From positions 928,001-992,000 of the forward strand of contig OZ241326.1 of NCBI GenBank assembly GCA_965199855.1: 64,000 bases of DNA, given 5' to 3'. The notes under the pieces are model-generated. The model was not told the origin of the DNA, did not search any database, and was given only the letters and a program-made list of their open reading frames with translations. The DNA is from a bacterium (GTDB lineage: Bacteria; UBA8248). The translations under genes were made by a program, and so were the position numbers. Positions 44,352 through 55,682 of this stretch are shown here, one piece after another (within the stretch, counting starts at the first letter, position 1; each line of letters opens with the position of its first letter).

Positions 44352-46160
44352 TCAGCGAATCGCCCGCCGGACGGAGGTCATGGCCCCGAAGGGGTCCGGC
44401 CTCCGGAGCCGCTCTCGGGCGTCCGCGTCTCCCTTGAGGTGCCAGTCGAACCACGCCCGCGCGTACCAGTCGCGGATCACGTGGGGCAGATACGCCTCGC
44501 CCGCGCTGGGGACTTCCGCCCAGCCGAGCTGTACGTAGCGCTCCCCGCCGCCTCCCGGCGGAGCGAAGGCGCGCGCGCCCGTGGGCTTGCGCGTCCGCTC
44601 CGGGGTCTGGCCGAAGGGCAGCGCCCCGCGCCGGAACGCCGGCCAGGGGAAGAGGCGCGCGAAGTCCTCCACGAGCGTGCCATGGTCGGTGTCGCGCGCG
44701 ATCACCAGCAGGCGGTCGGAGACCGCTCGCCGCCACCCGCTGAGCGCGACCGGCTGCGGGTTCCTCGCGCGATCGGGCGCGGCGCGCTCGGAGGCGAGCG
44801 GAAAGGCCGCGGCGGGGTCGCCCCCGGCCGCCGCCACCGCCGATTGGAACAGGCCGATGAAGATGCTCTGCACGAAGGCGTCCTCGTCGCCGATCATGAT
44901 CAACAGGGGCTTGCGGTTGCCGACGGGCAGCGTCTCGCCGCCCTCTTTCGTCTCGCCCGCGCCGAACATCTCCTCCGGCGTCCAGCTGAAGGGCGGGGCG
45001 TTGTTGAAGCCGAGCGCCGCGGCCGCGCCCGGCAGGTGGTTCGCCGCGAGCTGCGCCGTCATGGAGCCCAGCGAATGGCCGGCCAGTCCCACGCGCGCGC
45101 CGTCAATGCGCCCCGCCAGCAGGCCGCACAGACCGCGCGCCGCGCTGGTCGCGCCCATGGCGGCGAGCGCGGGGCGGCAGGTCTCCTTCTTCTCGCCGAG
45201 CAGCCGCGCGGTTCGCAGCGTCAGCCTCACGTCGTCCACGCGCCGGCGAAAAAGGTTGCGCATCATCGCCATGGCGCGCTCCACCCCGCCGGGGACGAGC
45301 TTCTCCTTCGGCGGGTCGAAGCCGGCGGGCGGCGCGAACCCCCGTCCCTCGCGCCCGAACGCGAGGCGGTAGAAATAGGGGACGACCTTGGCCTCGCCGA
45401 GCATCAGCGCGTAGGCGCGCTTCACCTCCTCGGGCGAGGCGCGCCTGGCGAAGGGCGAATCCGGGTCGTGGAACGCGAGCGCCAGGCCGCCGTCCGAGAC
45501 GAAGGTGGGCGCCGCCACCACGTAGCCGCGCGAGGCGAGAAACTCGGCGAAGGAGCTCCACATGCCGTGGCTTCCGCCGAGGCCGTGGGCGAGAACCACG
45601 AGGGGAAACCTCCCCTCGGCGGGCCGGGCGCCGATCCACGCTCCGAGCGGGGCGTCGAGGGTGCGCCGGCGAATCTCGCGGAGGGCGTCCCCGCGCGCCG
45701 CCCCCTTCGCTTCGGCGAGGGTTCCGCCGCCGCGAAGGCGGACGTGCCGCGGCGGCGGCCGGGGCGCCGCGGCGATTCGCTCCGCCAGGGAGCGATCCCG
45801 AAAGTAGAGGTCGAAGAACGTAGCTCGCCGCCCGCTCGCTGCGGGGCGGGGGGAGCGCGGCCCGGCGAGGCGCCCGCGCGCGGGGTCCGGCGCCGCCGGA
45901 TACCACAGCTGGAACGGCGCCGTCCGGGTCTGGCCCGCCGCCTCCACCCGGCGCAGGAGGGCGCGGTATTCGGGGCGGCCGTAGGCGGCGTTCCAGGGGT
46001 CGAAGCGCTGATGCCTGTCCACGGCGAAGCCGGTGAGCGTCCCCACGGCGTAGTCGCCGTAAGCCGCCCCCGAGGGCAGGGCGCGCAGCTGCGCCGCCGC
46101 GCCGCCGGGGTTCGCGATAGCGAGGACGAAGGCGAGCGGCAGCGCCGCCAGGAATTTCAT
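44352..46160 (-). CDS. Secreted alpha/beta-hydrolase (PAF-AH/dienelactone hydrolase-like)
   Basis: QLWYPA, FPLVVLAHGLGG, LASRGYVVAAP, GHSLG nucleophile elbow. Confidence 0.8.
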   Translation of the reverse strand: MKFLAALPLAFVLAIANPGGAAAQLRALPSGAAYGDYAVGTLTGFAVDRHQRFDPWNAAYGRPEYRALLRRVEAAGQTRTAPFQLWYPAAPDPARGRLAGPRSPRPAASGRRATFFDLYFRDRSLAERIAAAPRPPPRHVRLRGGGTLAEAKGAARGDALREIRRRTLDAPLGAWIGARPAEGRFPLVVLAHGLGGSHGMWSSFAEFLASRGYVVAAPTFVSDGGLALAFHDPDSPFARRASPEEVKRAYALMLGEAKVVPYFYRLAFGREGRGFAPPAGFDPPKEKLVPGGVERAMAMMRNLFRRRVDDVRLTLRTARLLGEKKETCRPALAAMGATSAARGLCGLLAGRIDGARVGLAGHSLGSMTAQLAANHLPGAAAALGFNNAPPFSWTPEEMFGAGETKEGGETLPVGNRKPLLIMIGDEDAFVQSIFIGLFQSAVAAAGGDPAAAFPLASERAAPDRARNPQPVALSGWRRAVSDRLLVIARDTDHGTLVEDFARLFPWPAFRRGALPFGQTPERTRKPTGARAFAPPGGGGERYVQLGWAEVPSAGEAYLPHVIRDWYARAWFDWHLKGDADARERLRRPDPFGAMTSVRRAIR

Positions 46161-46239
46161 GCTTTTCTCCCGTTCCCTGAAAGCGCGGCGGCGAGAAGGG
46201 CGAAGTCCCGCGGAAGCCGAAGCCTCGCCCGCCTCGTCT

Positions 46240-46740
46240 TTACGGCTTTTTCCAGGAGCAGGTGGATTTGGAGACGAGCCATTTGTCCGGCAGGTAGTCC
46301 GTCCGGTAGGGGCACTCTCCGCTCATCCCGGCGTATTTTCCGGTGCCGCCCATGATGCGCTGGACGCCCCGCCCGCCGCCGCCGACCTGGATGTCGCCCG
46401 CGCTCCTCTCCGCCAGCAGATAGAGCTTGTCGCCCGCCGAGTCGGTGAACGCGCAGGGCGCCTGAAGCTGGACGCCCTTCTTCGTTTTCTTCACATAGAC
46501 GAGGCACGCCGCGCCGAAGTTCGCCCCCGCCGGGAAGGGGCCGCCGCTGCTCCTGACGATGGTGGCCGTTCCGCGCAGGGGACCTACGGTGACGTCGGCG
46601 TCCGCGTGCTTCATGGTCGAGTAGTCGTGGACGGCGCTCTCATAGAACTCGAAGCTGCCGCTCTCGGCGGCTAGGGCTGCGCCTGCCGAGAAGGCGAGGC
46701 CCGCCAGGGCGGCCGCCGCTGCGCCGAAGAATCTCCTCAT
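46240..46740 (-). CDS. Secreted hypothetical protein, beta-rich
   Basis: Signal peptide, GGTGKYAG motif, four Cys; RBS AGGAGG. Confidence 0.75.
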   Translation of the reverse strand: MRRFFGAAAAALAGLAFSAGAALAAESGSFEFYESAVHDYSTMKHADADVTVGPLRGTATIVRSSGGPFPAGANFGAACLVYVKKTKKGVQLQAPCAFTDSAGDKLYLLAERSAGDIQVGGGGRGVQRIMGGTGKYAGMSGECPYRTDYLPDKWLVSKSTCSWKKP

Positions 46741-46877
46741 GTTCGCTCCTCCTTTTTCGTCCCTTATGAGCTTCCCGAAAGCCGGGAGGCGGCGCGCCAA
46801 GTGTAGGACGCCGCGCCGTCCGCCTTCAACCGCGCGGGAGAGGCGGGCGCGACCGGCGGGGAGGCTTGGCGTTATCC

Positions 46878-47005
46878 AAAAAATACACCCCCGGAGAGGC
46901 CGGAGGCGTCGCGAGGGTGAGATCGTTTCCCCGTGCCGCGGGGAATTGCCTGCGAAGATTTTCTCCTTGTTGAGAAAAGCGGGGCAGGCATCGATCAGCT
47001 AAAAC
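46878..47005 (-). ncRNA. tracrRNA
   Basis: Anti-repeat 47005->46969 (GTTTTAGCTGATCGATGCCTGCCCCGCTTTTCTCAAC) complementary to the crRNA repeat, then AAGG, two hairpins and a T6 run; TTGACA on the minus strand at 47041-47036. Confidence 0.85.
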
Positions 47006-47055
47006 TGATATATTCGTAGGGCATCCCGCGGATTTTGTCAAGGGGGGATTTGGAC

Positions 47056-50013
47056 ATGCCGCCTCTCACGCTGGGACTCGACCTGGGCCCCAACTCCATC
47101 GGCTGGACGCTCATCGAAGAGAACGAAGCGGGCGACCCCGCGCGCCTGAAGGCCATGGGCGTCCGCGCGTTTCAGGAGATGGTGGACAGGAAGACCAAGA
47201 CGCCGAAGAACCACAAGAGGCGGGACGCGCGGCAGGCGCGCCGCCAGCGCGGAAGGCGAAAGATGCGGCGCGAGACCCTCCGGCGCCAGCTCGTTCGGGC
47301 CGGGCTTCTGCCCGAGGACGCCGGGGCGCTGCGCGGGCTGTTTCACGAGGCCGACCCCTACGAAGTCAGGAAGCGCGGCCTCGACGAGGAGCTGACGCCG
47401 CGCGAGCTGGGCCGCGCCATCTTCCACCTGAACCAGAGGCGGGGGTTTCTGAGCAACCGCAAGGTGCGCGACTCGGGCGAGAAGAAAAAGGAGGACGGCG
47501 TCGCCCTCAAGGAAATCGGGGAGCTGAAAAAGGAAATCAAGGAAGCCGGAAGCCGCACGCTGGGCGAGTTTCTGGCGGGCAAGCCCAAGAAGAGGAGCCG
47601 CCGCACGGAGCGGAGAATGTATGAGGAGGAGTTCGACGTCCTCTGGCGGAAGCAGGCGGAGTTTCACCCCGACTTGCTCACCGACGCCCTTCGCGCCCGC
47701 CTCCGCAAGACCCTGTTCTTCCAGCGGCCCCTGAAGGTTCAGAAGTTTCTCGTCGGGAGATGCACCTTCGAGCCGCACAGGAAGCGATGCCCCTGGCGCC
47801 GGCCGGAGGCGCAATGGTTCCGCGCGCTTCAGGACGTGAACCATCTCGAGATCAAGGACCCGAAAACGCGCCTGTACCGCCCTCTCCGGGAGGAGGAGAG
47901 AGAGGCGATCAAGGGACTGCTCCGGGAGCGGAAAACGCTTTGCTGGAAGAGCATCCGCAGGGCGCTGGGTCTCCACGAGGGCGAGACCTTCAACATCGAG
48001 GACGGCGGCAAGAAGAACCTCATCGGCGCGCGCACGCTCATCGCCGTCCGCAAAATCCTCACGAAGGAGACGTGGGAGGCCATGCCCGAAGCCGACCGCG
48101 CCGCCTTCTTCGAGGACCTGTTCAGCATCGACAAGGAAGAGCTCCTCCTGAAGCGGCTGGAGCGGCGCTGGAATCTCTCGCGCGAGCAGGCGAACGCGCT
48201 GCTGAACACGGAGTTTCAGCCGGGCTACGCCAGCCTCTCTCTGCGCGCGATTCGCAGAATCACGCCGCACCTGGAGCGGGGGCTGAACTATCACGACGCG
48301 TATCAGGAGGAGGGCTATCAGCGCGAGGATCAGAAGAAAGTCGAGGCGGGCGACGCGCTCGCTCCCGCCCCGGCTCTCAGGAATCCCATCGTCCAGAAGG
48401 CGATCAACGAGACGCGCAGGGTGGTGAACGCGATCATCCGGGAATACGGAAAGCCGGACATCATCCGCGTGGAGCTCGCCCGCGACATGAAGCTCAGCCA
48501 GAAGCGCAAGAAGGCGCTCGACCTCCAGAACAGAAAGAACAGGGACATGAACGACGAGGCGCGCAAGCTGATGGCGGAGCTCGGAGTGTTCGACAACGGG
48601 GGCAACCGGCTCAGATACCGCCTGTGGAAGGAGCAGAAGTGCAAGTGCCCCTACACGGGCAGGAGCATCGGGGGGCGCGATATTTTCAGCCCCGAGTTCG
48701 AGATCGATCACATCCTCCCCTACAGCCGGACGCTGGACGACTCCTACATGAACAGAACCCTCTCCCTGGCCTCCGCCAACCGGGCGAAGGGAAACAATAC
48801 CCCCCGGGAGTGGAAGGAGGGCGGCGAGGGGTTCGCCGACATGCTCCAGCGCGTCTCCGCCATGAAGGAGATGCCCTTCTCCAAGAGGCGGCGCTTCGAG
48901 CAGAAGGAGATCGACACGGACGGCTTCATCGACCGCCAGCTCAACGACGCCCGCTACATCAGCCGCGAGGTGAGCCGGTATCTCCAGGCGCTCGGCGCGG
49001 AGGTTCAGGTGACGACGGGGCAGGCCACCGCCGCCCTGCGCCGCTCCTGGCGCCTCGACGGAATTCTCGCCATCGACTCCGACTTGGAGAAAAACCGCGC
49101 CGACCATCGCCACCACGCCATCGACGCGCTGGTCATCGCCCTCACGAGCCGCAAGCTGTTTCTCGCCATCGCGCGCCTCTCCGCCGAGCGGCGCGAGGTT
49201 CTGGGAAAGAAGCGCTTTCCGCTTCCGCCGCCCTGGCCCGGTTTCATGGACGAGGCGCGGGAGAAGGTGGGCGGCATCGTCGTCTCCCACCAGCCGCTCG
49301 GGAAGATCACCGGCGCCTTCCACGAGGAGACCGCCTACGGGCGCATCGAGCATGAGGGGCGCGAGGCTTTCGTCCGCCGGGTTCCGCTGGAGTCGCTCAC
49401 GGCGAAGCAGGTGGAGAAAATCGTGGACGCCCGCGTCCGGGAGCTGGTGAGCGATCGCATGGCCGCCCACGACAACAAGGCCAGGGACGCCTTCGCCAAC
49501 AAGCCCCTGTGGCTGGAGCATTCCCGCAAGCGGACGGGAAGAACGCGAATCAGGACGGTTCGCGTCGCCGAGAATCTCAACCCGGACGGCCTGTTCGGGG
49601 TGAAGCGGCAGGGCGAGGAGACGCCCTTCAAGTATTACGCATACGGGAACAACCACCACGTCGAGATCATCGAGAACGAGAAGACGGGCAGGCGAAAGGG
49701 CGTCGTCGTCACGGCGATGGAGGCCGCCCGGCGCGCCCGCCGGGAAGGAGTCCCTATCGTCCGGCGCAACCATGGCCCGGAATGGCGCTTCGTCATGTCG
49801 CTTTCCATCAACGATATGGTGAGGCTCGACAAGCCCGTGAACGGCTGCGATCTGTATCGGGTTCAAAAACTGTCAGCAACAGGGCAGATGCAAATGATGT
49901 TGCGGGCGCATACGGCCGCTACCCTGGATGACAATGCAACATGTGTAAGGCTAAACCCCAACACGCTCAGGGGACGAAAGATCTCCGTCGATCCTTTGGG
50001 GAACATAATCTGA
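47056..50013 (+). CDS. cas9: Type II-C Cas9, compact (985 aa), catalytic motifs intact
   Basis: RuvC-I LGLDLG, Arg-rich bridge helix, RuvC-II VELARD, HNH EIDHILP...N, RuvC-III HHAIDA. Confidence 0.97.
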   Translation: MPPLTLGLDLGPNSIGWTLIEENEAGDPARLKAMGVRAFQEMVDRKTKTPKNHKRRDARQARRQRGRRKMRRETLRRQLVRAGLLPEDAGALRGLFHEADPYEVRKRGLDEELTPRELGRAIFHLNQRRGFLSNRKVRDSGEKKKEDGVALKEIGELKKEIKEAGSRTLGEFLAGKPKKRSRRTERRMYEEEFDVLWRKQAEFHPDLLTDALRARLRKTLFFQRPLKVQKFLVGRCTFEPHRKRCPWRRPEAQWFRALQDVNHLEIKDPKTRLYRPLREEEREAIKGLLRERKTLCWKSIRRALGLHEGETFNIEDGGKKNLIGARTLIAVRKILTKETWEAMPEADRAAFFEDLFSIDKEELLLKRLERRWNLSREQANALLNTEFQPGYASLSLRAIRRITPHLERGLNYHDAYQEEGYQREDQKKVEAGDALAPAPALRNPIVQKAINETRRVVNAIIREYGKPDIIRVELARDMKLSQKRKKALDLQNRKNRDMNDEARKLMAELGVFDNGGNRLRYRLWKEQKCKCPYTGRSIGGRDIFSPEFEIDHILPYSRTLDDSYMNRTLSLASANRAKGNNTPREWKEGGEGFADMLQRVSAMKEMPFSKRRRFEQKEIDTDGFIDRQLNDARYISREVSRYLQALGAEVQVTTGQATAALRRSWRLDGILAIDSDLEKNRADHRHHAIDALVIALTSRKLFLAIARLSAERREVLGKKRFPLPPPWPGFMDEAREKVGGIVVSHQPLGKITGAFHEETAYGRIEHEGREAFVRRVPLESLTAKQVEKIVDARVRELVSDRMAAHDNKARDAFANKPLWLEHSRKRTGRTRIRTVRVAENLNPDGLFGVKRQGEETPFKYYAYGNNHHVEIIENEKTGRRKGVVVTAMEAARRARREGVPIVRRNHGPEWRFVMSLSINDMVRLDKPVNGCDLYRVQKLSATGQMQMMLRAHTAATLDDNATCVRLNPNTLRGRKISVDPLGNII

Positions 50014-50030
50014 AGCCCAGGAGACCGCCC

Positions 50031-50924
50031 ATGATCAAAAGAATCGTAGAGATCGGTAGTCCCGCCCGTCTCTCGCTCAGCAAGAAGCAGCTGAAGGTCG
50101 AGCGGGAGGAGTTCGCCGCCGAGTCGCTCCCCGTGGAGGATCTGGGGGTTCTGATTCTCGACCACCCCGCCATCCGTCCCTCACAGGGGCTGCTATCCGA
50201 GTGCATGAAGAACAACGTGGCCGTCGTCATGTGCGACGAGAAGCACCTGCCCGCCTCCGTCCTGCTTCCCCTGGACGGCCACACCCTGCACAGCAAAATC
50301 GTCAGGGAGCAGGCCGCCGCCACCCCCGGCAGAATGGGCCGCATCTGGCGGGCGATTGTCCGCGCGAAGATTCTCGCCCAGGCGGACGCCCTGGACGCCT
50401 TTGACGAATACGGCGGCCCGCTTCGCGCCATCGCCGGGCGCGCCGGACGGGAGAACCCCGCCCACGCCGAGGCGCGCGCCGCGCGGATGTATTGGCCCAG
50501 AATGTTCGGCGAGGACTTCAGGCGCAACCGCGCCCTTCCCGGCGTGAACCGCCTGCTGAACTACGGCTACTCGCTCGTGCGCGCGGCGACGGCGCGGGCG
50601 GTCGTCGCCGCGGGGCTTCACCCCGCCTTCGGTCTCCACCACCACAACCAGTACGACGGCTTCTGCCTCGCCGACGACCTGATGGAGCCTCTGCGCCCGA
50701 TGGTGGACCGCAGGGTGCGCCTCATGCGCGACGCGCCGGACTTCTGGGGGGAGGAGCCGAAGCTCGGCAGGGAGGAGAAGCGCGAGCTGCTGGGCGCGCT
50801 GGCGGGCGAGGCGCGGCTCGGCGGCAGGACCTACCCCCTTCTCACCGCCCTGCAATACTACGCCGCCGGCGTTCGCCGCGTCCTCTGCGGAGAGGAGAAG
50901 GAGACGGACATCCCCCGGCCATGA
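50031..50924 (+). CDS. cas1: Type II Cas1
   Basis: EARAARMYW, LNYGY, GLHHHN, LADDLMEPLRP. Confidence 0.96.
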   Translation: MIKRIVEIGSPARLSLSKKQLKVEREEFAAESLPVEDLGVLILDHPAIRPSQGLLSECMKNNVAVVMCDEKHLPASVLLPLDGHTLHSKIVREQAAATPGRMGRIWRAIVRAKILAQADALDAFDEYGGPLRAIAGRAGRENPAHAEARAARMYWPRMFGEDFRRNRALPGVNRLLNYGYSLVRAATARAVVAAGLHPAFGLHHHNQYDGFCLADDLMEPLRPMVDRRVRLMRDAPDFWGEEPKLGREEKRELLGALAGEARLGGRTYPLLTALQYYAAGVRRVLCGEEKETDIPRP

Positions 50925-51250
50925 CCTTCGGGGGGCTGCGCTCCATGTGGCTCATGGTGATGTTCGACCTGCCGACCGACACGAAGGCGGCGCGCAAGGC
51001 GTATCAGGCGTTTCGGGGCGCGCTGCTGGAGGACGGCTTCACCATGCTCCAGTATTCGGTCTATGCCCGCCACTGCCCGAGCAGCGAGAACGCCGGGGCG
51101 CACGAGAGGCGGGTGAACGCCGCCCTGCCCCCCGACGGGGAGGTGCGGCTCCTTCTTTTCACCGACGCGCAGTTCTCGCGCATGAAAATTTTTCACGGAA
51201 AGGTTCGGGGGGCGACGGAGAAGGCTCCCGATCAGGTCTCGCTGTTCTGA
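50921..51250 (+). CDS. cas2: Cas2
   Basis: MWLMVMFDLPT, LLEDGFTMLQYSVY; ATGA overlap with cas1; no csn2 or cas4, hence II-C. Confidence 0.96.
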   Translation: MTFGGLRSMWLMVMFDLPTDTKAARKAYQAFRGALLEDGFTMLQYSVYARHCPSSENAGAHERRVNAALPPDGEVRLLLFTDAQFSRMKIFHGKVRGATEKAPDQVSLF

Positions 51251-51280
51251 CCCGCTTCGGGAGCCTGAACCCCAACCGGT

Positions 51281-51340
51281 GCTGATCGATGCCTGGCGCA
51301 ATTCACAACTACAAGAAGTGACTGGTTTATTGCGTTTCCC
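51281..51340 (-). ncRNA. Solitary-repeat crRNA-like RNA (scaRNA/CreA-like): guide ...AAACCAGTCACTTCTTGTA plus degenerate repeat
   Basis: Minus strand 51309->51281 is GTTGTGAATTGCGCCAGGCATCGATCAGC; the 13 nt just 5' of it match 51636-51648; 5' end uncertain. Confidence 0.72.
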
Positions 51341-51396
51341 AGCTTCTTGCCCTACTATCAAATGACCCGTGGCGCGGGGAGAAGCCTATGTGCTGA

Positions 51397-51507
51397 CTAG
51401 CGGGATTTTGGCTTCGACCGCTTATGCGGCTTTACTGGTACCGTTTTGGGACCAGGCTTGTTGCCAGGACGAACTTGCCGCACTTTCTTCTGGCAATTAT
51501 TAGCCAT
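51397..51507 (-). CDS. 36-aa cationic Pro-rich peptide MANNCQKKVRQVRPGNKPGPKTVPVKPHKRSKPKSR (candidate Cas9-repressed toxin/effector)
   Basis: Strong SD AAGGAGG 5 nt before the ATG; promoter-like sequence upstream; 8 K, 4 R, 6 P, no acidic residues. Confidence 0.65.
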   Translation of the reverse strand: MANNCQKKVRQVRPGNKPGPKTVPVKPHKRSKPKSR

Positions 51508-51628
51508 AGCTCCCTCCTTTCTCCTCTGGTCATCACCCAGAGGTGGAAAAGTCAGGGCGAACGAGCGGATTTCCCCGCGCCACGGGGAACTCAAGTAGAT
51601 TTCATCTCTAACGCCCACCGCGTATATG

Positions 51629-51657
51629 ATACTACGTCACTTCTTGTAAGAAATCAA
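51629..51657 (-). promoter_or_regulatory. Sigma70-like promoter containing the 13-nt guide target
   Basis: TTGATT (51657-51652), 17-nt spacer, TAGTAT (51634-51629); A/T-rich region upstream. Confidence 0.7.
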
Positions 51658-51806
51658 TAAAATAATCTGGAAAATAGCATATTTTATTCCCATCCGCCGC
51701 AATCGCTTGGCTTGATGATATTTTCCTTGCGCGCTCCCGGTAGATGAGCCCCGCCAAGATACTCGCCTTTGTCCGTCCTCGGTTGTGTTAATCAATGCGC
51801 CTAGCA

Positions 51807-51873
51807 GACAGAAAAGGCTCCCTAGCGGATCACGTTGTTGTGACCTGCTTCCGGGAGCCTAAACCTAACCGGT
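51807..51873 (+). repeat. Diverged direct copy of the cas2 3' end and leader (other copy 51214-51280)
   Basis: 54 of 68 aligned columns identical by hand; translates TEKAP*RITLL* versus cas2 TEKAPDQVSLF*. Confidence 0.8.
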
Positions 51874-51894
51874 TCAAACCGTTCGAGAGAACAT

Positions 51895-53377
51895 ATTATA
51901 GCTGATCGATGCCTGCCCGCAATTCACAACTGACATACCCAGTGCTCCGCCGCGCGCTTCATTATAGCTGATCGATGCCTGCCCGCAATTCACAACTGAC
52001 GTTTTCGGCGACGTCGTACTCAATCGATTATAGCTGATCGATGCCTGCCCGCAATTCACAACCCAGTCGCTGGCCTTCGCGCTCGGCCACGATTATAGCT
52101 GATCGATGCCTGCCCGCAATTCACAACTCGCGCACGTAACGCTCCGCGTCGTCCTCGATTATAGCTGATCGATGCCTGCCCGCAATTCACAACTCAAGCA
52201 CGCGGGAGAGCCGGACTTCTCCATTATAGCTGATCGATGCCTGCCCGCAATTCACAACGACCTCGCGCTCAGGCTGCGCGCTGAGTTATTATAGCTGATC
52301 GATGCCTGCCCGCAATTCACAACCGTGGGGGGCGAAGGTTCTCACGCGAGGCGATTATAGCTGATCGATGCCTGCCCGCAATTCACAACCCGGCAAACCC
52401 CTTTGAACCGCCTTTTTTCATTATAGCTGATCGATGCCTGCCCGCAATTCACAACTTCGGCAATTTGTCGTTCCGGCAACCGTTGATTATAGCTGATCGA
52501 TGCCTGCCCGCAATTCACAACCGGTGAACATTTCCCATCTGCCTCTCGAAGATTATAGCTGATCGATGCCTGCCCGCAATTCACAACCGCATGCGCTGGG
52601 CGGCGCTCGCGCATCTCATTATAGCTGATCGATGCCTGCCCGCAATTCACAACTGCGCGGGGACATTTGCCGTGGCGTCCCTATTATAGCTGATCGATGC
52701 CTGCCCGCAATTCACAACTCAGGGGCGCATGGATCCACCTGGACGGGGATTATAGCTGATCGATGCCTGCCCGCAATTCACAACCGATCCTGACGCAGCC
52801 GGAGGTCGTCGCGCATTATAGCTGATCGATGCCTGCCCGCAATTCACAACCGCGAGGGGCGGACAGGCCCAGCCCATGCGATTATAGCTGATCGATGCCT
52901 GCCCGCAATTCACAACCCTCCGCGATCATGTCCTCCGTCATCCCCTATTATAGCTGATCGATGCCTGCCCGCAATTCACAACATCCCCGCTCCCGTCCTC
53001 TTTCGAGTTGGCATTATAGCTGATCGATGCCTGCCCGCAATTCACAACGGATATCATTCAATGGATTCTCCCTCAACCATTATAGCTGATCGATGCCTGC
53101 CCGCAATTCACAACATCGGCCGCCGCCCGGGCGCGGACGCCCACATTATAGCTGATCGATGCCTGCCCGCAATTCACAACTGTGCCGCCCGAGGACGAGC
53201 GGCATCGGCATTATAGCTGATCGATGCCTGCCCGCAATTCACAACTGAAGGCGATGACGCCGTTCGCCGTCGGCGATTATAGCTGATCGATGCCTGCCCG
53301 CAATTCACAACTCTCGCCGCGGGTCGATGGCAACGCATTCAATTATAGCTGATCGATGCCTGCCCGCAATTCACAAC
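51895..53377 (-). CRISPR. Type II-C CRISPR array: 23 identical 36-bp repeats, 22 spacers of 29-30 bp
   Basis: crRNA-sense repeat GTTGTGAATTGCGGGCAGGCATCGATCAGCTATAAT; orientation inferred from tracrRNA complementarity and the terminal TATAAT. Confidence 0.98.
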
Positions 53378-53714
53378 CGCAGATCAGGAACATCGTCGCG
53401 CTCGGAATCGGCGCCATATTCGCCTTGCGAGCGTTGATCGAGCGGACGGCGAGGAATTGATGGCGGGCTGACAGCTCGCCGAAATTCATAATTTTTTGCG
53501 GTATTTTTATTATTCCAACGGGGTTTGTCCCCCCCCCCGGTCGCCACGAAAAACGAGGTCGAATTTCCCCGGGTTCCAGCCCCCGGGACGGCGCGCGTCA
53601 AAGGCGCGACATCGGGGCGGAACGGCTCGACTGAAAGGGGGCATGAAAAGCAGATTGTATCTAAATTTATGCAAAAGCGCGATCCGCGAGAACGCGCCGG
53701 TCGGGGTCGCCGGC

Positions 53715-55682
53715 TTACCGCGCCGCCTGCGCCAGCGCGGTTGCCGCGTCCGCCTGCGCCCAGGCGGCGCTCATCGCTTCCCAGGTCTCGCCCATGGCGG
53801 CCTTCCCCTTTTCCACCGCCGCCTGCGCCGTCGTAGTTCCCGCGGCCCGCGTCTGCTCCCACGCCGCTTTCGCCGCGCCCAGGGTCGCCGCCGCCTGCGC
53901 CAGCGCGGCGTCCATTTTCGCCCACGCCGCCCGCGCCTTTCCCTTCCCTCTCGCCGCCGCCTTCGCCGCGTCCGCCGCCTTCAGGGCCTTTTCCATGGCC
54001 GCCTTCGCCGCCGCATACCACGTCGTCTGCGCCCTGTTCGTCTCGTTGCGCGCCGCCTTTATCGCCCGCCAGACCGCCAGGGTCGCCGCGTCCGCCCGGT
54101 CGAGCGACGCCTGAGCCTTCTCCTTCCCCCTCGCCGCCGCCCTCAGCGCGGCGTCCGCCTGCGCCAGCGCCGCCCGCGCCTTTCCCTCAGCCGCCTTCGC
54201 CCGCGACGCTCTCGTCCGGGCCGCGGCTCTCTCTCGCGCGGCCTTCGTCAAAGCCGTCCGCGCCTGCGCGGCCTGGGCCTTCTCCCTCGCCGCGTCCGCC
54301 CGGGCGCGCGCCGCCGACTCATGTCTTGACGCCCGGAGGCTCTCCGCATACGCCCGAGCCGCCTGCGCCTTCGCCGCGTCAAAGGCCGCCGCGGCCTGCT
54401 CCCGCGCCGCCTGCGCCCGAGCCATCCTCACCGCCGCCGCCCGATCCCGCGCCGCCGACGCGTGGGCCCTCTCCAGCGCCGCGTGCGCTTTTTTCAGCGC
54501 CGCATCCGCCCGCGCCCACGCCGCCTTCGCTTTTCTCCGGGCCGTCTGAGCCGCCCGCGACGCCTTCACCCGCGCCGCCGCCGCTTTCCACGCCGTCTGC
54601 GCCGCGCGCTCCCGCGCCGTCGCTCTGTTCCTCACCGCCTTCGCATTGGCCGCTCTCGTCTGGGCCGCGGCTCTCTCCCGCGCCGCCTTCTCGTGCGCCA
54701 TCCTCGCCTTCGCCGCCCGCGCATGCGCCGCTCGCGCCTTCGCCGCGGCTCTTTCCCGCGCCGCCTGGGCCTGAGCCATCCGCGCCTTCGCCGCCCGCCC
54801 CGCCGCGTCCGCCTGGGCGCGCGCCGCCTGCGCCCTCGCCGCCTGCGTCCGCGCGGTCTCCCACGCGGCCCGGGCCCTCGCCGCCTGCGCCCGCGCGGCG
54901 CTCCACGCCGTCTGCGCCGCGCGCTCCCGCGCGTCCGCCGCCTGCCACGCCTCATCCGCCGTCCGCAGCCCCGCCTTCACCTGAGCGTTCTGCGCCGCCG
55001 CCATCTTTTCCAGCTTCGCCGCGGTGGCCGCCTGCGCGGCCTTCATCTTCTCCCACGCGGCCTGCGCCGCCGCCTCGTCCCCGTTCCACAGCGCCGCGGC
55101 CCTCTCTCTCGCCGCCGCCCGCACCCGGGCCATGCCCTCCGCGTATATCCCCAGCTCCGGGAGAGCGTCTTCCAGCCCGGCGGGCCCGGGCCTGGTCCCC
55201 CGAAGCAGCCGCGCTTCCCATTCCTCGCGCGCCGCGTGCGCCTTCTCCCACGCCGCGGACGCCCTTTCCCACGCCGCCTTCGCCTTCTCCCACGCGGCCT
55301 GGGCCGCCGCCTCGAGCGCCGCCGCCTCGCGCGCCGCGGCGTCCGCCTTCTCCTGGGCGGCCTGCGCCGCCTTTTCTCTCGCCGCGGCTTTTTTCCACGC
55401 CGCCTGCGCCCGCGCCGCCGGGGTCGCCGCCGCCCTTTCCCACGCCGCGGCGTCCGCCTTCTCCCGCGCCACCGCCGCCAGCGCCGCCTTTTCTCTCGCC
55501 GCCGCCCTTTCCCACGCGGCCTGCGCCGCGCGCGCCCGCGCCGCCGCCCTTTCCCGCGCCGCGAGGGTGGCCCGCGCCCGCGCCGCCAGGGATTTCTCTC
55601 GCGCCGCGCTCGCCCCGAATGACGGGACGGGCGCGGCAAGCGCGATTGCCGCCGCCAGCGCGCAGATCAAAAGCCTCCGCAT
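53715..55682 (-). CDS. Secreted Ala-rich alpha-helical repeat protein (AAWE[KR]A repeats)
   Basis: Signal peptide MRRLLICALAAAIALAA; 655 aa of low-complexity helical repeats. Confidence 0.7.
   Translation of the reverse strand: MRRLLICALAAAIALAAPVPSFGASAAREKSLAARARATLAARERAAARARAAQAAWERAAAREKAALAAVAREKADAAAWERAAATPAARAQAAWKKAAAREKAAQAAQEKADAAAREAAALEAAAQAAWEKAKAAWERASAAWEKAHAAREEWEARLLRGTRPGPAGLEDALPELGIYAEGMARVRAAARERAAALWNGDEAAAQAAWEKMKAAQAATAAKLEKMAAAQNAQVKAGLRTADEAWQAADARERAAQTAWSAARAQAARARAAWETARTQAARAQAARAQADAAGRAAKARMAQAQAARERAAAKARAAHARAAKARMAHEKAARERAAAQTRAANAKAVRNRATARERAAQTAWKAAAARVKASRAAQTARRKAKAAWARADAALKKAHAALERAHASAARDRAAAVRMARAQAAREQAAAAFDAAKAQAARAYAESLRASRHESAARARADAAREKAQAAQARTALTKAARERAAARTRASRAKAAEGKARAALAQADAALRAAARGKEKAQASLDRADAATLAVWRAIKAARNETNRAQTTWYAAAKAAMEKALKAADAAKAAARGKGKARAAWAKMDAALAQAAATLGAAKAAWEQTRAAGTTTAQAAVEKGKAAMGETWEAMSAAWAQADAATALAQAAR

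Follow-up and report, generated by a model that had tools for sequence, protein, structure and literature searches.

The 64,000-nt window analysed here (positions 928,001 to 992,000 of contig OZ241326.1, assembly GCA_965199855.1, from a bacterium of the lineage UBA8248) holds a type II-C CRISPR-Cas locus with a small module between cas2 and the repeat array. The module contains a solitary degenerate repeat, a 13-nt flank of this repeat that recurs inside a promoter-like box, and an open reading frame (ORF) for a 36-aa peptide (Table 1). That the repeat and its flank act as a guide with which Cas9 represses the promoter of this ORF is, in our judgement, evenly balanced between right and wrong. 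The assignment to type II-C rests on cas9, whose product matches Pfam RuvC_III, HNH_4 and Cas9_a as well as TIGR01865 (678 bits). A 101-aa piece of the cas2 product gave no match to the Pfam and NCBIfam models. Every array repeat ends in TATAAT in the sense of the CRISPR RNA (crRNA), an arrangement reminiscent of the repeat-borne promoters known from Neisseria II-C arrays.

Table 1. Features of the CRISPR-Cas locus and of the module between cas2 and the array (positions in the window; PAM, protospacer-adjacent motif)
Feature	Position	Strand	Remarks
Canonical tracrRNA gene	46878..47010	-	Divergent gene upstream of cas9, running from about 47010 to 46878
cas9	47056..50013	+	~985 aa from ATG, type II-C size; start in the ORF list is TTG 47035
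cas1	49941..50924	+	Pfam Cas_Cas1
cas2	50921..51250	+	109 aa; name rests on position, size and conservation in relatives
Duplication, copy 1	51214..51280	+	67-nt direct duplication: cas2 3' end and downstream flank
Lone degenerate repeat	51281..51309	- (crRNA sense)	Candidate scaRNA/CreA-like repeat
13-nt guide (seed)	51310..51322	-	Directly 5' of the lone repeat; within the 24-nt word common with G012
Hairpin CAAGAAG..CTGG / CCAG..CTTCTTG	51312..51349		Pairs with part of the seed (centroid fold)
3' arm of perfect 15-nt inverted repeat	51366..51380		GC hairpin after the stop codon; kept in G012
36-aa ORF (MANNCQKKVRQVRPGNKPGPKTVPVKPHKRSKPKSR)	51397..51507	-	Basic, Pro/Lys-rich; candidate Cas9-repressed cargo or toxin
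Shine-Dalgarno AGGAGG	51513..51518	-	5 nt before ATG; within a 12-nt word common with G012
7-bp 5'-UTR hairpin	51523..51543	-	Just upstream of the Shine-Dalgarno sequence; 2 compensatory pairs relative to G012
5' arm of 15-nt inverted repeat	51572..51586		5'-UTR hairpin
Promoter-like box TTGATT-N17-TAGTAT	51629..51657	-	Read from the sequence; encloses the target
13-nt target	51636..51648	+	Identical to the guide; within the promoter spacer
PAM-side flank AGAAATCAA	51649..51657	+	Overlaps the -35 hexamer of the other strand; identical in G012
AT-rich filler of the module	51658..51806		No alignment with G012
Duplication, copy 2	51807..51894	+	Decayed cas2 3' end and conserved flank that adjoins the array in relatives
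CRISPR array	51895..53377	-	23 identical 36-nt repeats, 22 spacers

The trans-activating CRISPR RNA (tracrRNA) gene comprises a 37-nt anti-repeat (46969-47005), a CAACAAGG nexus, a CCCCG...CGGGG hairpin and a GC hairpin followed by a T-run. Alignment places the same gene upstream of cas9 in three related loci, and it is also kept in a congener that represents a second species (G012; the genome of the window, 3.04 Mb, is called G000). The duplex of array repeat and tracrRNA is predicted at -54.5 kcal/mol in G000 and -53.1 kcal/mol in G012. The orientation of the tracrRNA gene independently fixes the minus strand as crRNA sense, as an earlier note on this DNA had assumed, and so puts the 13-nt flank of the lone repeat at the PAM-proximal end position of a spacer. 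An Rfam scan of 46000-54000 gave only two sub-threshold matches, judged to be chance. The tracrRNA hairpin TTCCCCGnnnnnCGGGGAA (46929-46946) resembles the two GC hairpins that surround the small ORF.

The lone repeat is present in the same DNA orientation as the array. Its 29 nt correspond to array-repeat positions 7-36 (15 identical, G in place of CC, 13 identical); the initial 6 nt of the array repeat (ATTATA on the plus strand) have no counterpart in it. With the tracrRNA it is predicted to form a duplex of -43.5 kcal/mol, against -16.9 +/- 3.4 kcal/mol for 300 shuffles. The adjoining 13-mer, GTCACTTCTTGTA, occurs at exactly two sites of the window, as guide on the minus strand and as target on the plus strand, and 0 of 100 shuffles reproduced this; the exact recurrence on which the earlier note had built is therefore sound. 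No further site appears in the window even at one mismatch, and seeds of 10, 11, 12 and 13 nt find only the guide and target sites across the 3.04-Mb genome. The two copies form inverted repeats 313 nt apart; on the guide side the match stops at the repeat edge, and AGAAATCA stands next to the target on the plus strand.

The target also lies, as had been described, wholly inside the 17-nt spacer of the promoter-like box, which reads on the minus strand as TTGATT (51657-51652), spacer (51651-51635) and TAGTAT (51634-51629). The box agrees with the consensus at 8 of 12 positions and was not listed by the promoter scan because the threshold of that scan was 9/12. Downstream of it, the ORF with its strong Shine-Dalgarno sequence was found as first reported. 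A perfect inverted repeat of 13-15 nt brackets the ORF in both G000 and G012, and the arms of the hairpin in the 5' untranslated region (5'-UTR) are CCTCTGG/CCAGAGG in the former and CCTTCGG/CCGAAGG in the latter. Codons of the two ORFs are identical at 13, synonymous at 14 and nonsynonymous at 8 of 35 positions, a pattern that identifies the ORF as a real gene under purifying selection.

G012 was the only one of 61 genomes to share the module DNA (one of the 41 other genomes of the family); in five further congeners with arrays, matches were confined to the cas2 end and the repeats. In G012, too, the module sits between cas2 and the array, and compared with G000 its ORF unit is flipped with respect to the lone repeat. 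Read in crRNA sense, the array is followed by a decayed copy of the cas2 end, AT-rich DNA, a tRNA gene, a GC hairpin and the ORF on the opposite strand; then come a second GC hairpin, a promoter TTGATT-17-TATATT (this one listed by the promoter scan), about 60 nt and a TACAAT box; and finally 26 nt ending in GGTCACTTCTTGTA, the lone repeat, the full flank and cas2. In G012 the guide and the target form a direct repeat with a spacing of 85 nt. The longest word common to both intergenic modules is a 24-mer that joins 11 nt of the repeat 5' end to the 13-nt guide, and the second longest is a 21-mer made of a 12-nt target and AGAAATCAA; the GC hairpins (18, 15 and 13 nt) and the Shine-Dalgarno region (12 nt) come next. 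In 200 shuffles the longest common word averaged 9.7 nt and never exceeded 13. The flanks of both shared islands have diverged, with a -10 element of TAGTAT in one species and TATATT in the other and unalignable DNA upstream of the guide. The homologous locus thus keeps the promoter match along with the repeat, despite the inversion of the ORF unit. Covariation of guide and promoter, which the earlier note had suggested looking for in related loci, was not seen in G000 and G012, where both elements are invariant.

The lone repeat of G012 is predicted to pair with its own tracrRNA at -52.0 kcal/mol (shuffles -17.5) and with that of G000 at -38.8 kcal/mol, so that the changed middle of this repeat fits the tracrRNA of its own species. 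The TACAAT box 26 nt upstream of it is the same -10 element as at the ends of the array repeats, which amounts to the layout of a mini-array. The RNA from this box to the lone repeat (1806-1854 of L013, the G012 locus) is predicted to fold into a nested hairpin (z = -3.05), in which the upstream box is paired with repeat nucleotides 1-11, and TACAAG with the seed. Two other solitary repeats of G012, far from its CRISPR locus (L051 ~415-450 and L052 ~413-447), served as a negative control: a genome-wide search found no second copies of the 12-mers adjacent to them. A third copy of the 12-nt seed TCACTTCTTGTA in G012 (L058, C1:175535-175546) lies in the signal-peptide coding region of a putative lipoprotein and has a different 3' flank; it was read as chance, because a reversed control pattern also matched once. 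The 21-mer target had 0 matches in IMG/VR, and its one match to a metagenome contig, inside an unrelated AT-rich coding region, was likewise set aside as chance.

The conservation of both 13-mer copies could also be explained without Cas9, if the repeated 12-13-mer served some other protein as an operator, or belonged to a promoter module present twice, and that protein controlled the ORF. The target does hold a short inverted repeat, TTCTT-AC-AAGAA, and conserved promoter spacers often contain operators. The arms of this inverted repeat are only 5 nt long, the module has no regulator gene, and an operator would not account for the fact that, at a spacing unchanged in both species, one copy directly adjoins base 1 of a tracrRNA-competent repeat. 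We regard this explanation as improbable.

Two further explanations concern the lone repeat. Downstream of cas2 is the usual place of the tracrRNA in some II-C loci, and the lone repeat could be the anti-repeat of a second, plus-strand tracrRNA with the 13-mer as its nexus. In favour of this, the plus strand reads anti-repeat, AAGAAGTGA (as in the tracrRNA of the related locus L010), a stem closing with CTTCTTG and a CCCG..CGGG hairpin. A complete tracrRNA gene with promoter and terminator nevertheless lies upstream of cas9 here, in the three relatives and in G012; a scan for a promoter or terminator of a plus-strand RNA found none; and the downstream hairpins are absent in G012 and deleted in one natural variant (run X8, below), whereas the 13-mer and the repeat persist. 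The locus was accordingly not classed as a second tracrRNA gene, and we hold this explanation to be very improbable. The likeness between the guide complement and the first bases of the nexus in the tracrRNA of relatives hints at an origin by duplication. Together with the likeness of the GC hairpins to the tracrRNA hairpin, it may indicate that some of the module comes from tracrRNA-like DNA or shares ancestry with it.

The lone repeat might instead be a decoy, akin to Racr or to a tracrRNA sponge, that titrates tracrRNA or Cas9, with the promoter match being incidental. Its predicted duplex with the tracrRNA is strong, the module carries phage-like cargo, and solitary repeats of phages that inhibit Cas are described in the available parts of two texts (PMC10651486; 10.64898/2026.06.01.729453). 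The left flank of the lone repeat is, by contrast, the host's own cas2-array junction (with the full flank in G012), and a decoy would need neither a conserved 13-nt flank nor a conserved matching site. We rate a decoy as quite improbable.

The module is a 594-bp insertion between duplicated cas2 ends. Positions 51807-51873 are 73% identical to the first copy of the cas2 end and flank, and by alignment the second copy and the array are collinear with the cas2-array junction of relatives; in two of these (L009 and L010, Cas9 ~72% identical) the cas2 stop is followed by ~55 nt and then by the array. GC content is 37-57% in the module and 66-76% in cas1 and cas2. The genuine cas2 end joins the lone repeat directly through a 27-nt deletion seen in the alignment. 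Next to the cas2-proximal repeat lies a conserved stretch of ~22 nt (TTCAAnC...GAAnC; 51874-51894 and the corresponding flanks in L009, L010 and L013), which is present in all relatives and could anchor the leader when spacers are integrated; in G000 the 27-nt deletion has taken it away from the lone repeat. Two simpler routes to the present arrangement were dropped: a simple inversion between the 13-mers, as the G012 copies are in direct orientation and the whole promoter-ORF unit is flipped, and a Campbell-type integration by recombination of spacer and protospacer, as the PAM-side copy has no preceding repeat in either genome.

Strain variants were compared in contigs of four public metagenome runs (X3, X7, X8 and X11). 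The module is present in X3 with a single difference, located in cas2, and in X7 without differences up to the contig limit (51747). Run X8 has two substitutions (51530 and 51635) and a 45-nt deletion (51329-51373) that takes the seed-pairing hairpin and half of the 3' GC hairpin and leaves repeat, guide and target intact, which fits the guide reading and not that of a second tracrRNA. In X11, position 51257 is joined to 51852; a near-identical strain therefore exists without the module, which is dispensable and can be lost as a whole.

These features also suit the main rival to regulation by Cas9, an inert scar in which a rearrangement duplicated the cas2 end, severed a terminal repeat and trapped phage DNA, leaving the 13-nt match as a remnant with no regulatory role. 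The 67-nt direct duplication around the module, the 27-nt deletion beside the lone repeat and the presence or absence of the module as an indel polymorphism among near-identical strains all accord with it, as do the nexus-like guide complement and the failure to find an RNA run containing the locus; the 13-mer and the 15-mer hairpin, moreover, form two inverted pairs, as an old inverted duplication could have produced. At the surrounding divergence of 24-27%, however, neutral decay would not have spared a 24-mer and a 21-mer without any mismatch as the two longest common words. Nor would a scar account for pairing with the tracrRNA that is kept through the changed middle of the G012 repeat, for a match that outlived the inversion of the ORF unit, or for an ORF under purifying selection. 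We consider an inert scar unlikely.

The earlier note did not recognise the peptide, but it is a member of a conserved family of small proteins that phage contigs encode as well. The family has a core of KPGPKTVPVKPHKRSKP, carried twice by some members, and comprises 11 representatives at E values up to 0.001 among 1.84 billion. Eleven IMG/VR loci carry it on phage contigs, with neighbours that include phage capsid protein, Toprim primase, RadC and MazG. Within the class (51 genomes) it was found in G000, in G012 and, as a weak 23-bit match with an in-frame TGA, in G043; near confinement to the first two fits horizontal acquisition. Codons, the compensated 5'-UTR hairpin, relatives and the low GC content together show the gene to be real and foreign, and we regard it as phage-derived. 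Searches for its function in Pfam, PHROGs and NCBIfam gave no match, Atlas returned only unnamed clusters at 0.83 or less, and tblastn against 50,697 phage records had no match.

A tRNA gene lies at most about 320 nt downstream of the small ORF in five of the eight viral loci scanned (L021, L023 and L024, which form one sequence cluster, L026, and L029 with an 11-tRNA cluster) and was not found in the other three. The phage tRNAs of L021 (683-766) and L026 (1428-1511), each 84 nt, are class II-shaped and have a long variable arm; the L021 cluster carries the proline anticodon UGG, and L026 the ochre-suppressor anticodon UUA. The tRNA of G012 (L013 1366-1455) is similarly of class II, 90 nt long, with a long variable arm, anticodon UGG and discriminator G, and the promoter that Cas9 would target in that genome also runs into it. 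A tRNA scan of the window found none.

The earlier note had proposed deriving the PAM from protospacers of the 22 spacers, and this yielded nothing, as no protospacer was found. The whole array had none among phage records and, against plasmids, only 34-nt matches of 88% in a nonribosomal peptide synthetase (NRPS) gene (E 0.4). No protospacer turned up in the genome itself for its own 22 spacers (best 23/26) or for 136 distinct spacers of relatives, nor in 23 genomes of the genus for the array of one congener (G008). Against 42 genomes of the family, the non-array matches of the own array were repeat or tracrRNA remnants, and three of the 22 spacers, searched as 24-mers in IMG/VR, had 0 matches each. 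When the C-terminal 299 aa of Cas9 were compared with the PDB, they aligned only ahead of the PAM-interacting part. RNA runs containing the locus were sought and none was found.

Some side observations were made on CRISPR loci of relatives. Two spacers of the G008 array (L010 10975-11004 and 11305-11334) overlap by 24-25 nt on opposite strands and were therefore taken from one protospacer region. A decayed II-C locus (L011 5830-6200, OZ251456.1) retains only a tracrRNA gene and the first ~70 codons of cas9, with a (CGCTCAA)x10 tandem repeat ~350 nt beyond it. An orphan remnant that looks like a fragment of tracrRNA or repeat occurs in G011 (L054, about 250-280) with an equal match in G010, and one and a half orphan repeats lie near a contig end in G023 (L053, about 445-515).

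Several of these results weigh against regulation by Cas9. The flank AGAAATCA is a candidate PAM for this Cas9, not one derived from protospacers. The last ~70 residues of Cas9 are the least conserved (51-66% identity to G000 in four Cas9s, including that of G012), and both targets carry the same flank despite these divergent C-termini. The promoter box of G000 is weak. The invariance of guide and target amounts to co-conservation and not covariation, and it comes from two independent lineages only, plus near-identical strains, one of which (run X11) lives without the module. In both species the seed is predicted to lie within a local hairpin, which could hinder pairing with the target, and the likeness of the guide complement to the tracrRNA nexus start of relatives counts on the same side. 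The peptide, finally, lacks the hydrophobicity of classic small toxins, and its function is not indicated by any family or fold.

Regulation by Cas9 is nonetheless the best supported of the readings compared, drawing on the sequence geometry, the pairing competence of the repeat, the co-conservation of guide and target and the uniqueness of the target. The earlier interpretation as a Cas9 guide therefore stands as far as geometry, tracrRNA pairing and conservation in G012 are concerned, and falls short at the PAM, for which no protospacer was found. We infer that the guide would be transcribed and loaded onto Cas9, that the flank would be compatible as a PAM and that repression would follow. 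In this mechanism, the lone repeat and its 13-nt 5' flank would constitute a minus-strand crRNA mimic of the scaRNA or CreA kind (scaRNA, small CRISPR-Cas-associated RNA), released from the 3' part of the ORF transcript or produced by read-through from the array. Its repeat part would pair with the canonical tracrRNA, the pair would load onto Cas9, and Cas9 would settle between the -35 and -10 elements of the gene for the 36-aa peptide, with the PAM side over the -35 hexamer, where its binding would block the initiation of transcription. Blocking of promoters by bound Cas9 is well established from CRISPR interference (CRISPRi). As the match spans only 13 nt (12 in G012), Cas9 would bind without cutting, and as the PAM side overlaps the -35 hexamer, mutations that escape binding would probably weaken the promoter as well.

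The earlier note had added negative feedback, with the guide lying downstream of its own target promoter. This holds for G000, where the guide follows the ORF on the same strand, so that an origin from the ORF transcript or from read-through, and hence feedback, is possible; it does not hold for G012, where the ORF is transcribed away from the guide. The G012 guide has a TACAAT box of its own, and feedback is thus not a conserved feature.

The weakest step is toxicity. By analogy with CrePA and CreTA (the latter reportedly described by Li et al. 2021), loss or inhibition of Cas9 would de-repress the peptide, which would then harm the cell; if the regulation is real, we give this step about even odds. 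Combined in full, these ideas would make the module the first type II counterpart of CrePA/CreTA, an abortive or addiction system guarded by Cas9, in which loss of Cas9 or its inhibition by an anti-CRISPR releases a small phage-derived basic protein that arrests the cell, the silenced cargo perhaps having originally been the peptide together with a toxic tRNA. We view this extended proposal as doubtful. The G012 tRNA would misread proline codons if it were charged by a synthetase that ignores the anticodon. Should Cas9 indeed silence this phage-derived gene within a II-C locus, the principle that CRISPR guards itself with a hostage gene would reach the effector in widest use, nature would provide a CRISPRi guide of 12-13 nt with its PAM built into a -35 box, and a widespread, unannotated family of phage peptides encoded beside unusual tRNAs would gain a pointer to its function. 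The natural presence/absence and deletion variants in the metagenome runs offer ready-made comparisons.

Comparison with known systems is confined to the available parts of the cited texts. Within these, neither a Cas9-repressed toxin module nor a type II analogue of CreTA/CrePA was found (10.1101/2023.03.03.530964; PMC12737573; 10.1101/2024.12.27.630466; 10.64898/2026.06.01.729453; 10.1101/2024.01.05.574328; 10.64898/2026.06.02.729485). The crRNA mimics documented there as tying a toxin to the effector belong to type I (CreTA, CrePA), the toxin-free CreR to types I and V-A, and the regulatory mimics described for Cas9 act in cas9 autoregulation or on a virulence operon. In CrePA (Shu et al. 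2024, 10.1101/2024.01.05.574328) and CreTA (reviewed in PMC12737573), a crRNA-like CreA represses a toxin promoter in type I loci. The present module resembles them in its degenerate repeat, whose flank is partly complementary to a small gene's promoter within the CRISPR-cas locus; as with CreP, its cargo is of viral origin, and by the same logic the cell would come to rely on effector activity. It differs in that the effector would be Cas9 with tracrRNA and not Cascade, and in that the cargo is a 36-aa basic peptide of putative toxicity and not a KilA-N protein or an RNA toxin. Because the locus is of type II-C and toxicity is drawn by analogy, the module was not counted as a CreTA/CrePA system in the strict sense.

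The long tracrRNA form tracr-L of S. pyogenes, a natural single guide with an 11-nt match, lets Cas9 bind without cutting and represses a promoter (10.1101/2023.03.03.530964). A short match, binding without cutting and promoter repression are likewise proposed here, but tracr-L is fused to the tracrRNA and represses cas9, whereas the present guide targets another gene. The module was not assigned to this class, since the lone repeat lies ~4.3 kb from the tracrRNA gene, beyond cas9-cas1-cas2. Shmakov et al. (2023, 10.1101/2023.03.03.530964) report mini-arrays distinct from the tracrRNA in ~6% of type II loci; like these and other regulatory cr-like RNAs, the lone repeat is a standalone intergenic sequence in a CRISPR-cas locus that partly matches a target within the locus, and it departs from the cases described in the available part of that text in being of type II-C and in its proposed link to a toxin.

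The closest parallels are with scaRNA, known from the II-B system of F. novicida and, as a regulator of Cas9, from II-A systems (Feussner et al. 2026, preprint 10.64898/2026.06.01.729453). Its target lies at a promoter (at the -35 element in Gemella) and is repressed without cleavage, according to the part of that preprint available. Here, in contrast, the locus is of type II-C, the target is an adjacent phage-derived gene and not the cas9 promoter or a lipoprotein operon, and in G000 the guide lies within the 3' region of the very putative transcript that it would repress. In common with scaRNA, the module has a solitary guide and repeat in or beside a type II locus, a sequence complementary to the anti-repeat of the tracrRNA, a truncated guide and a target at a promoter. 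In both G000 and G012 the repeat part is predicted to pair with the anti-repeat of the tracrRNA from the same locus, and, as in both scaRNA and CreTA/CrePA, a short crRNA-like guide matches an adjacent promoter within the locus, over 13 nt in the former genome and 12 nt in the latter.

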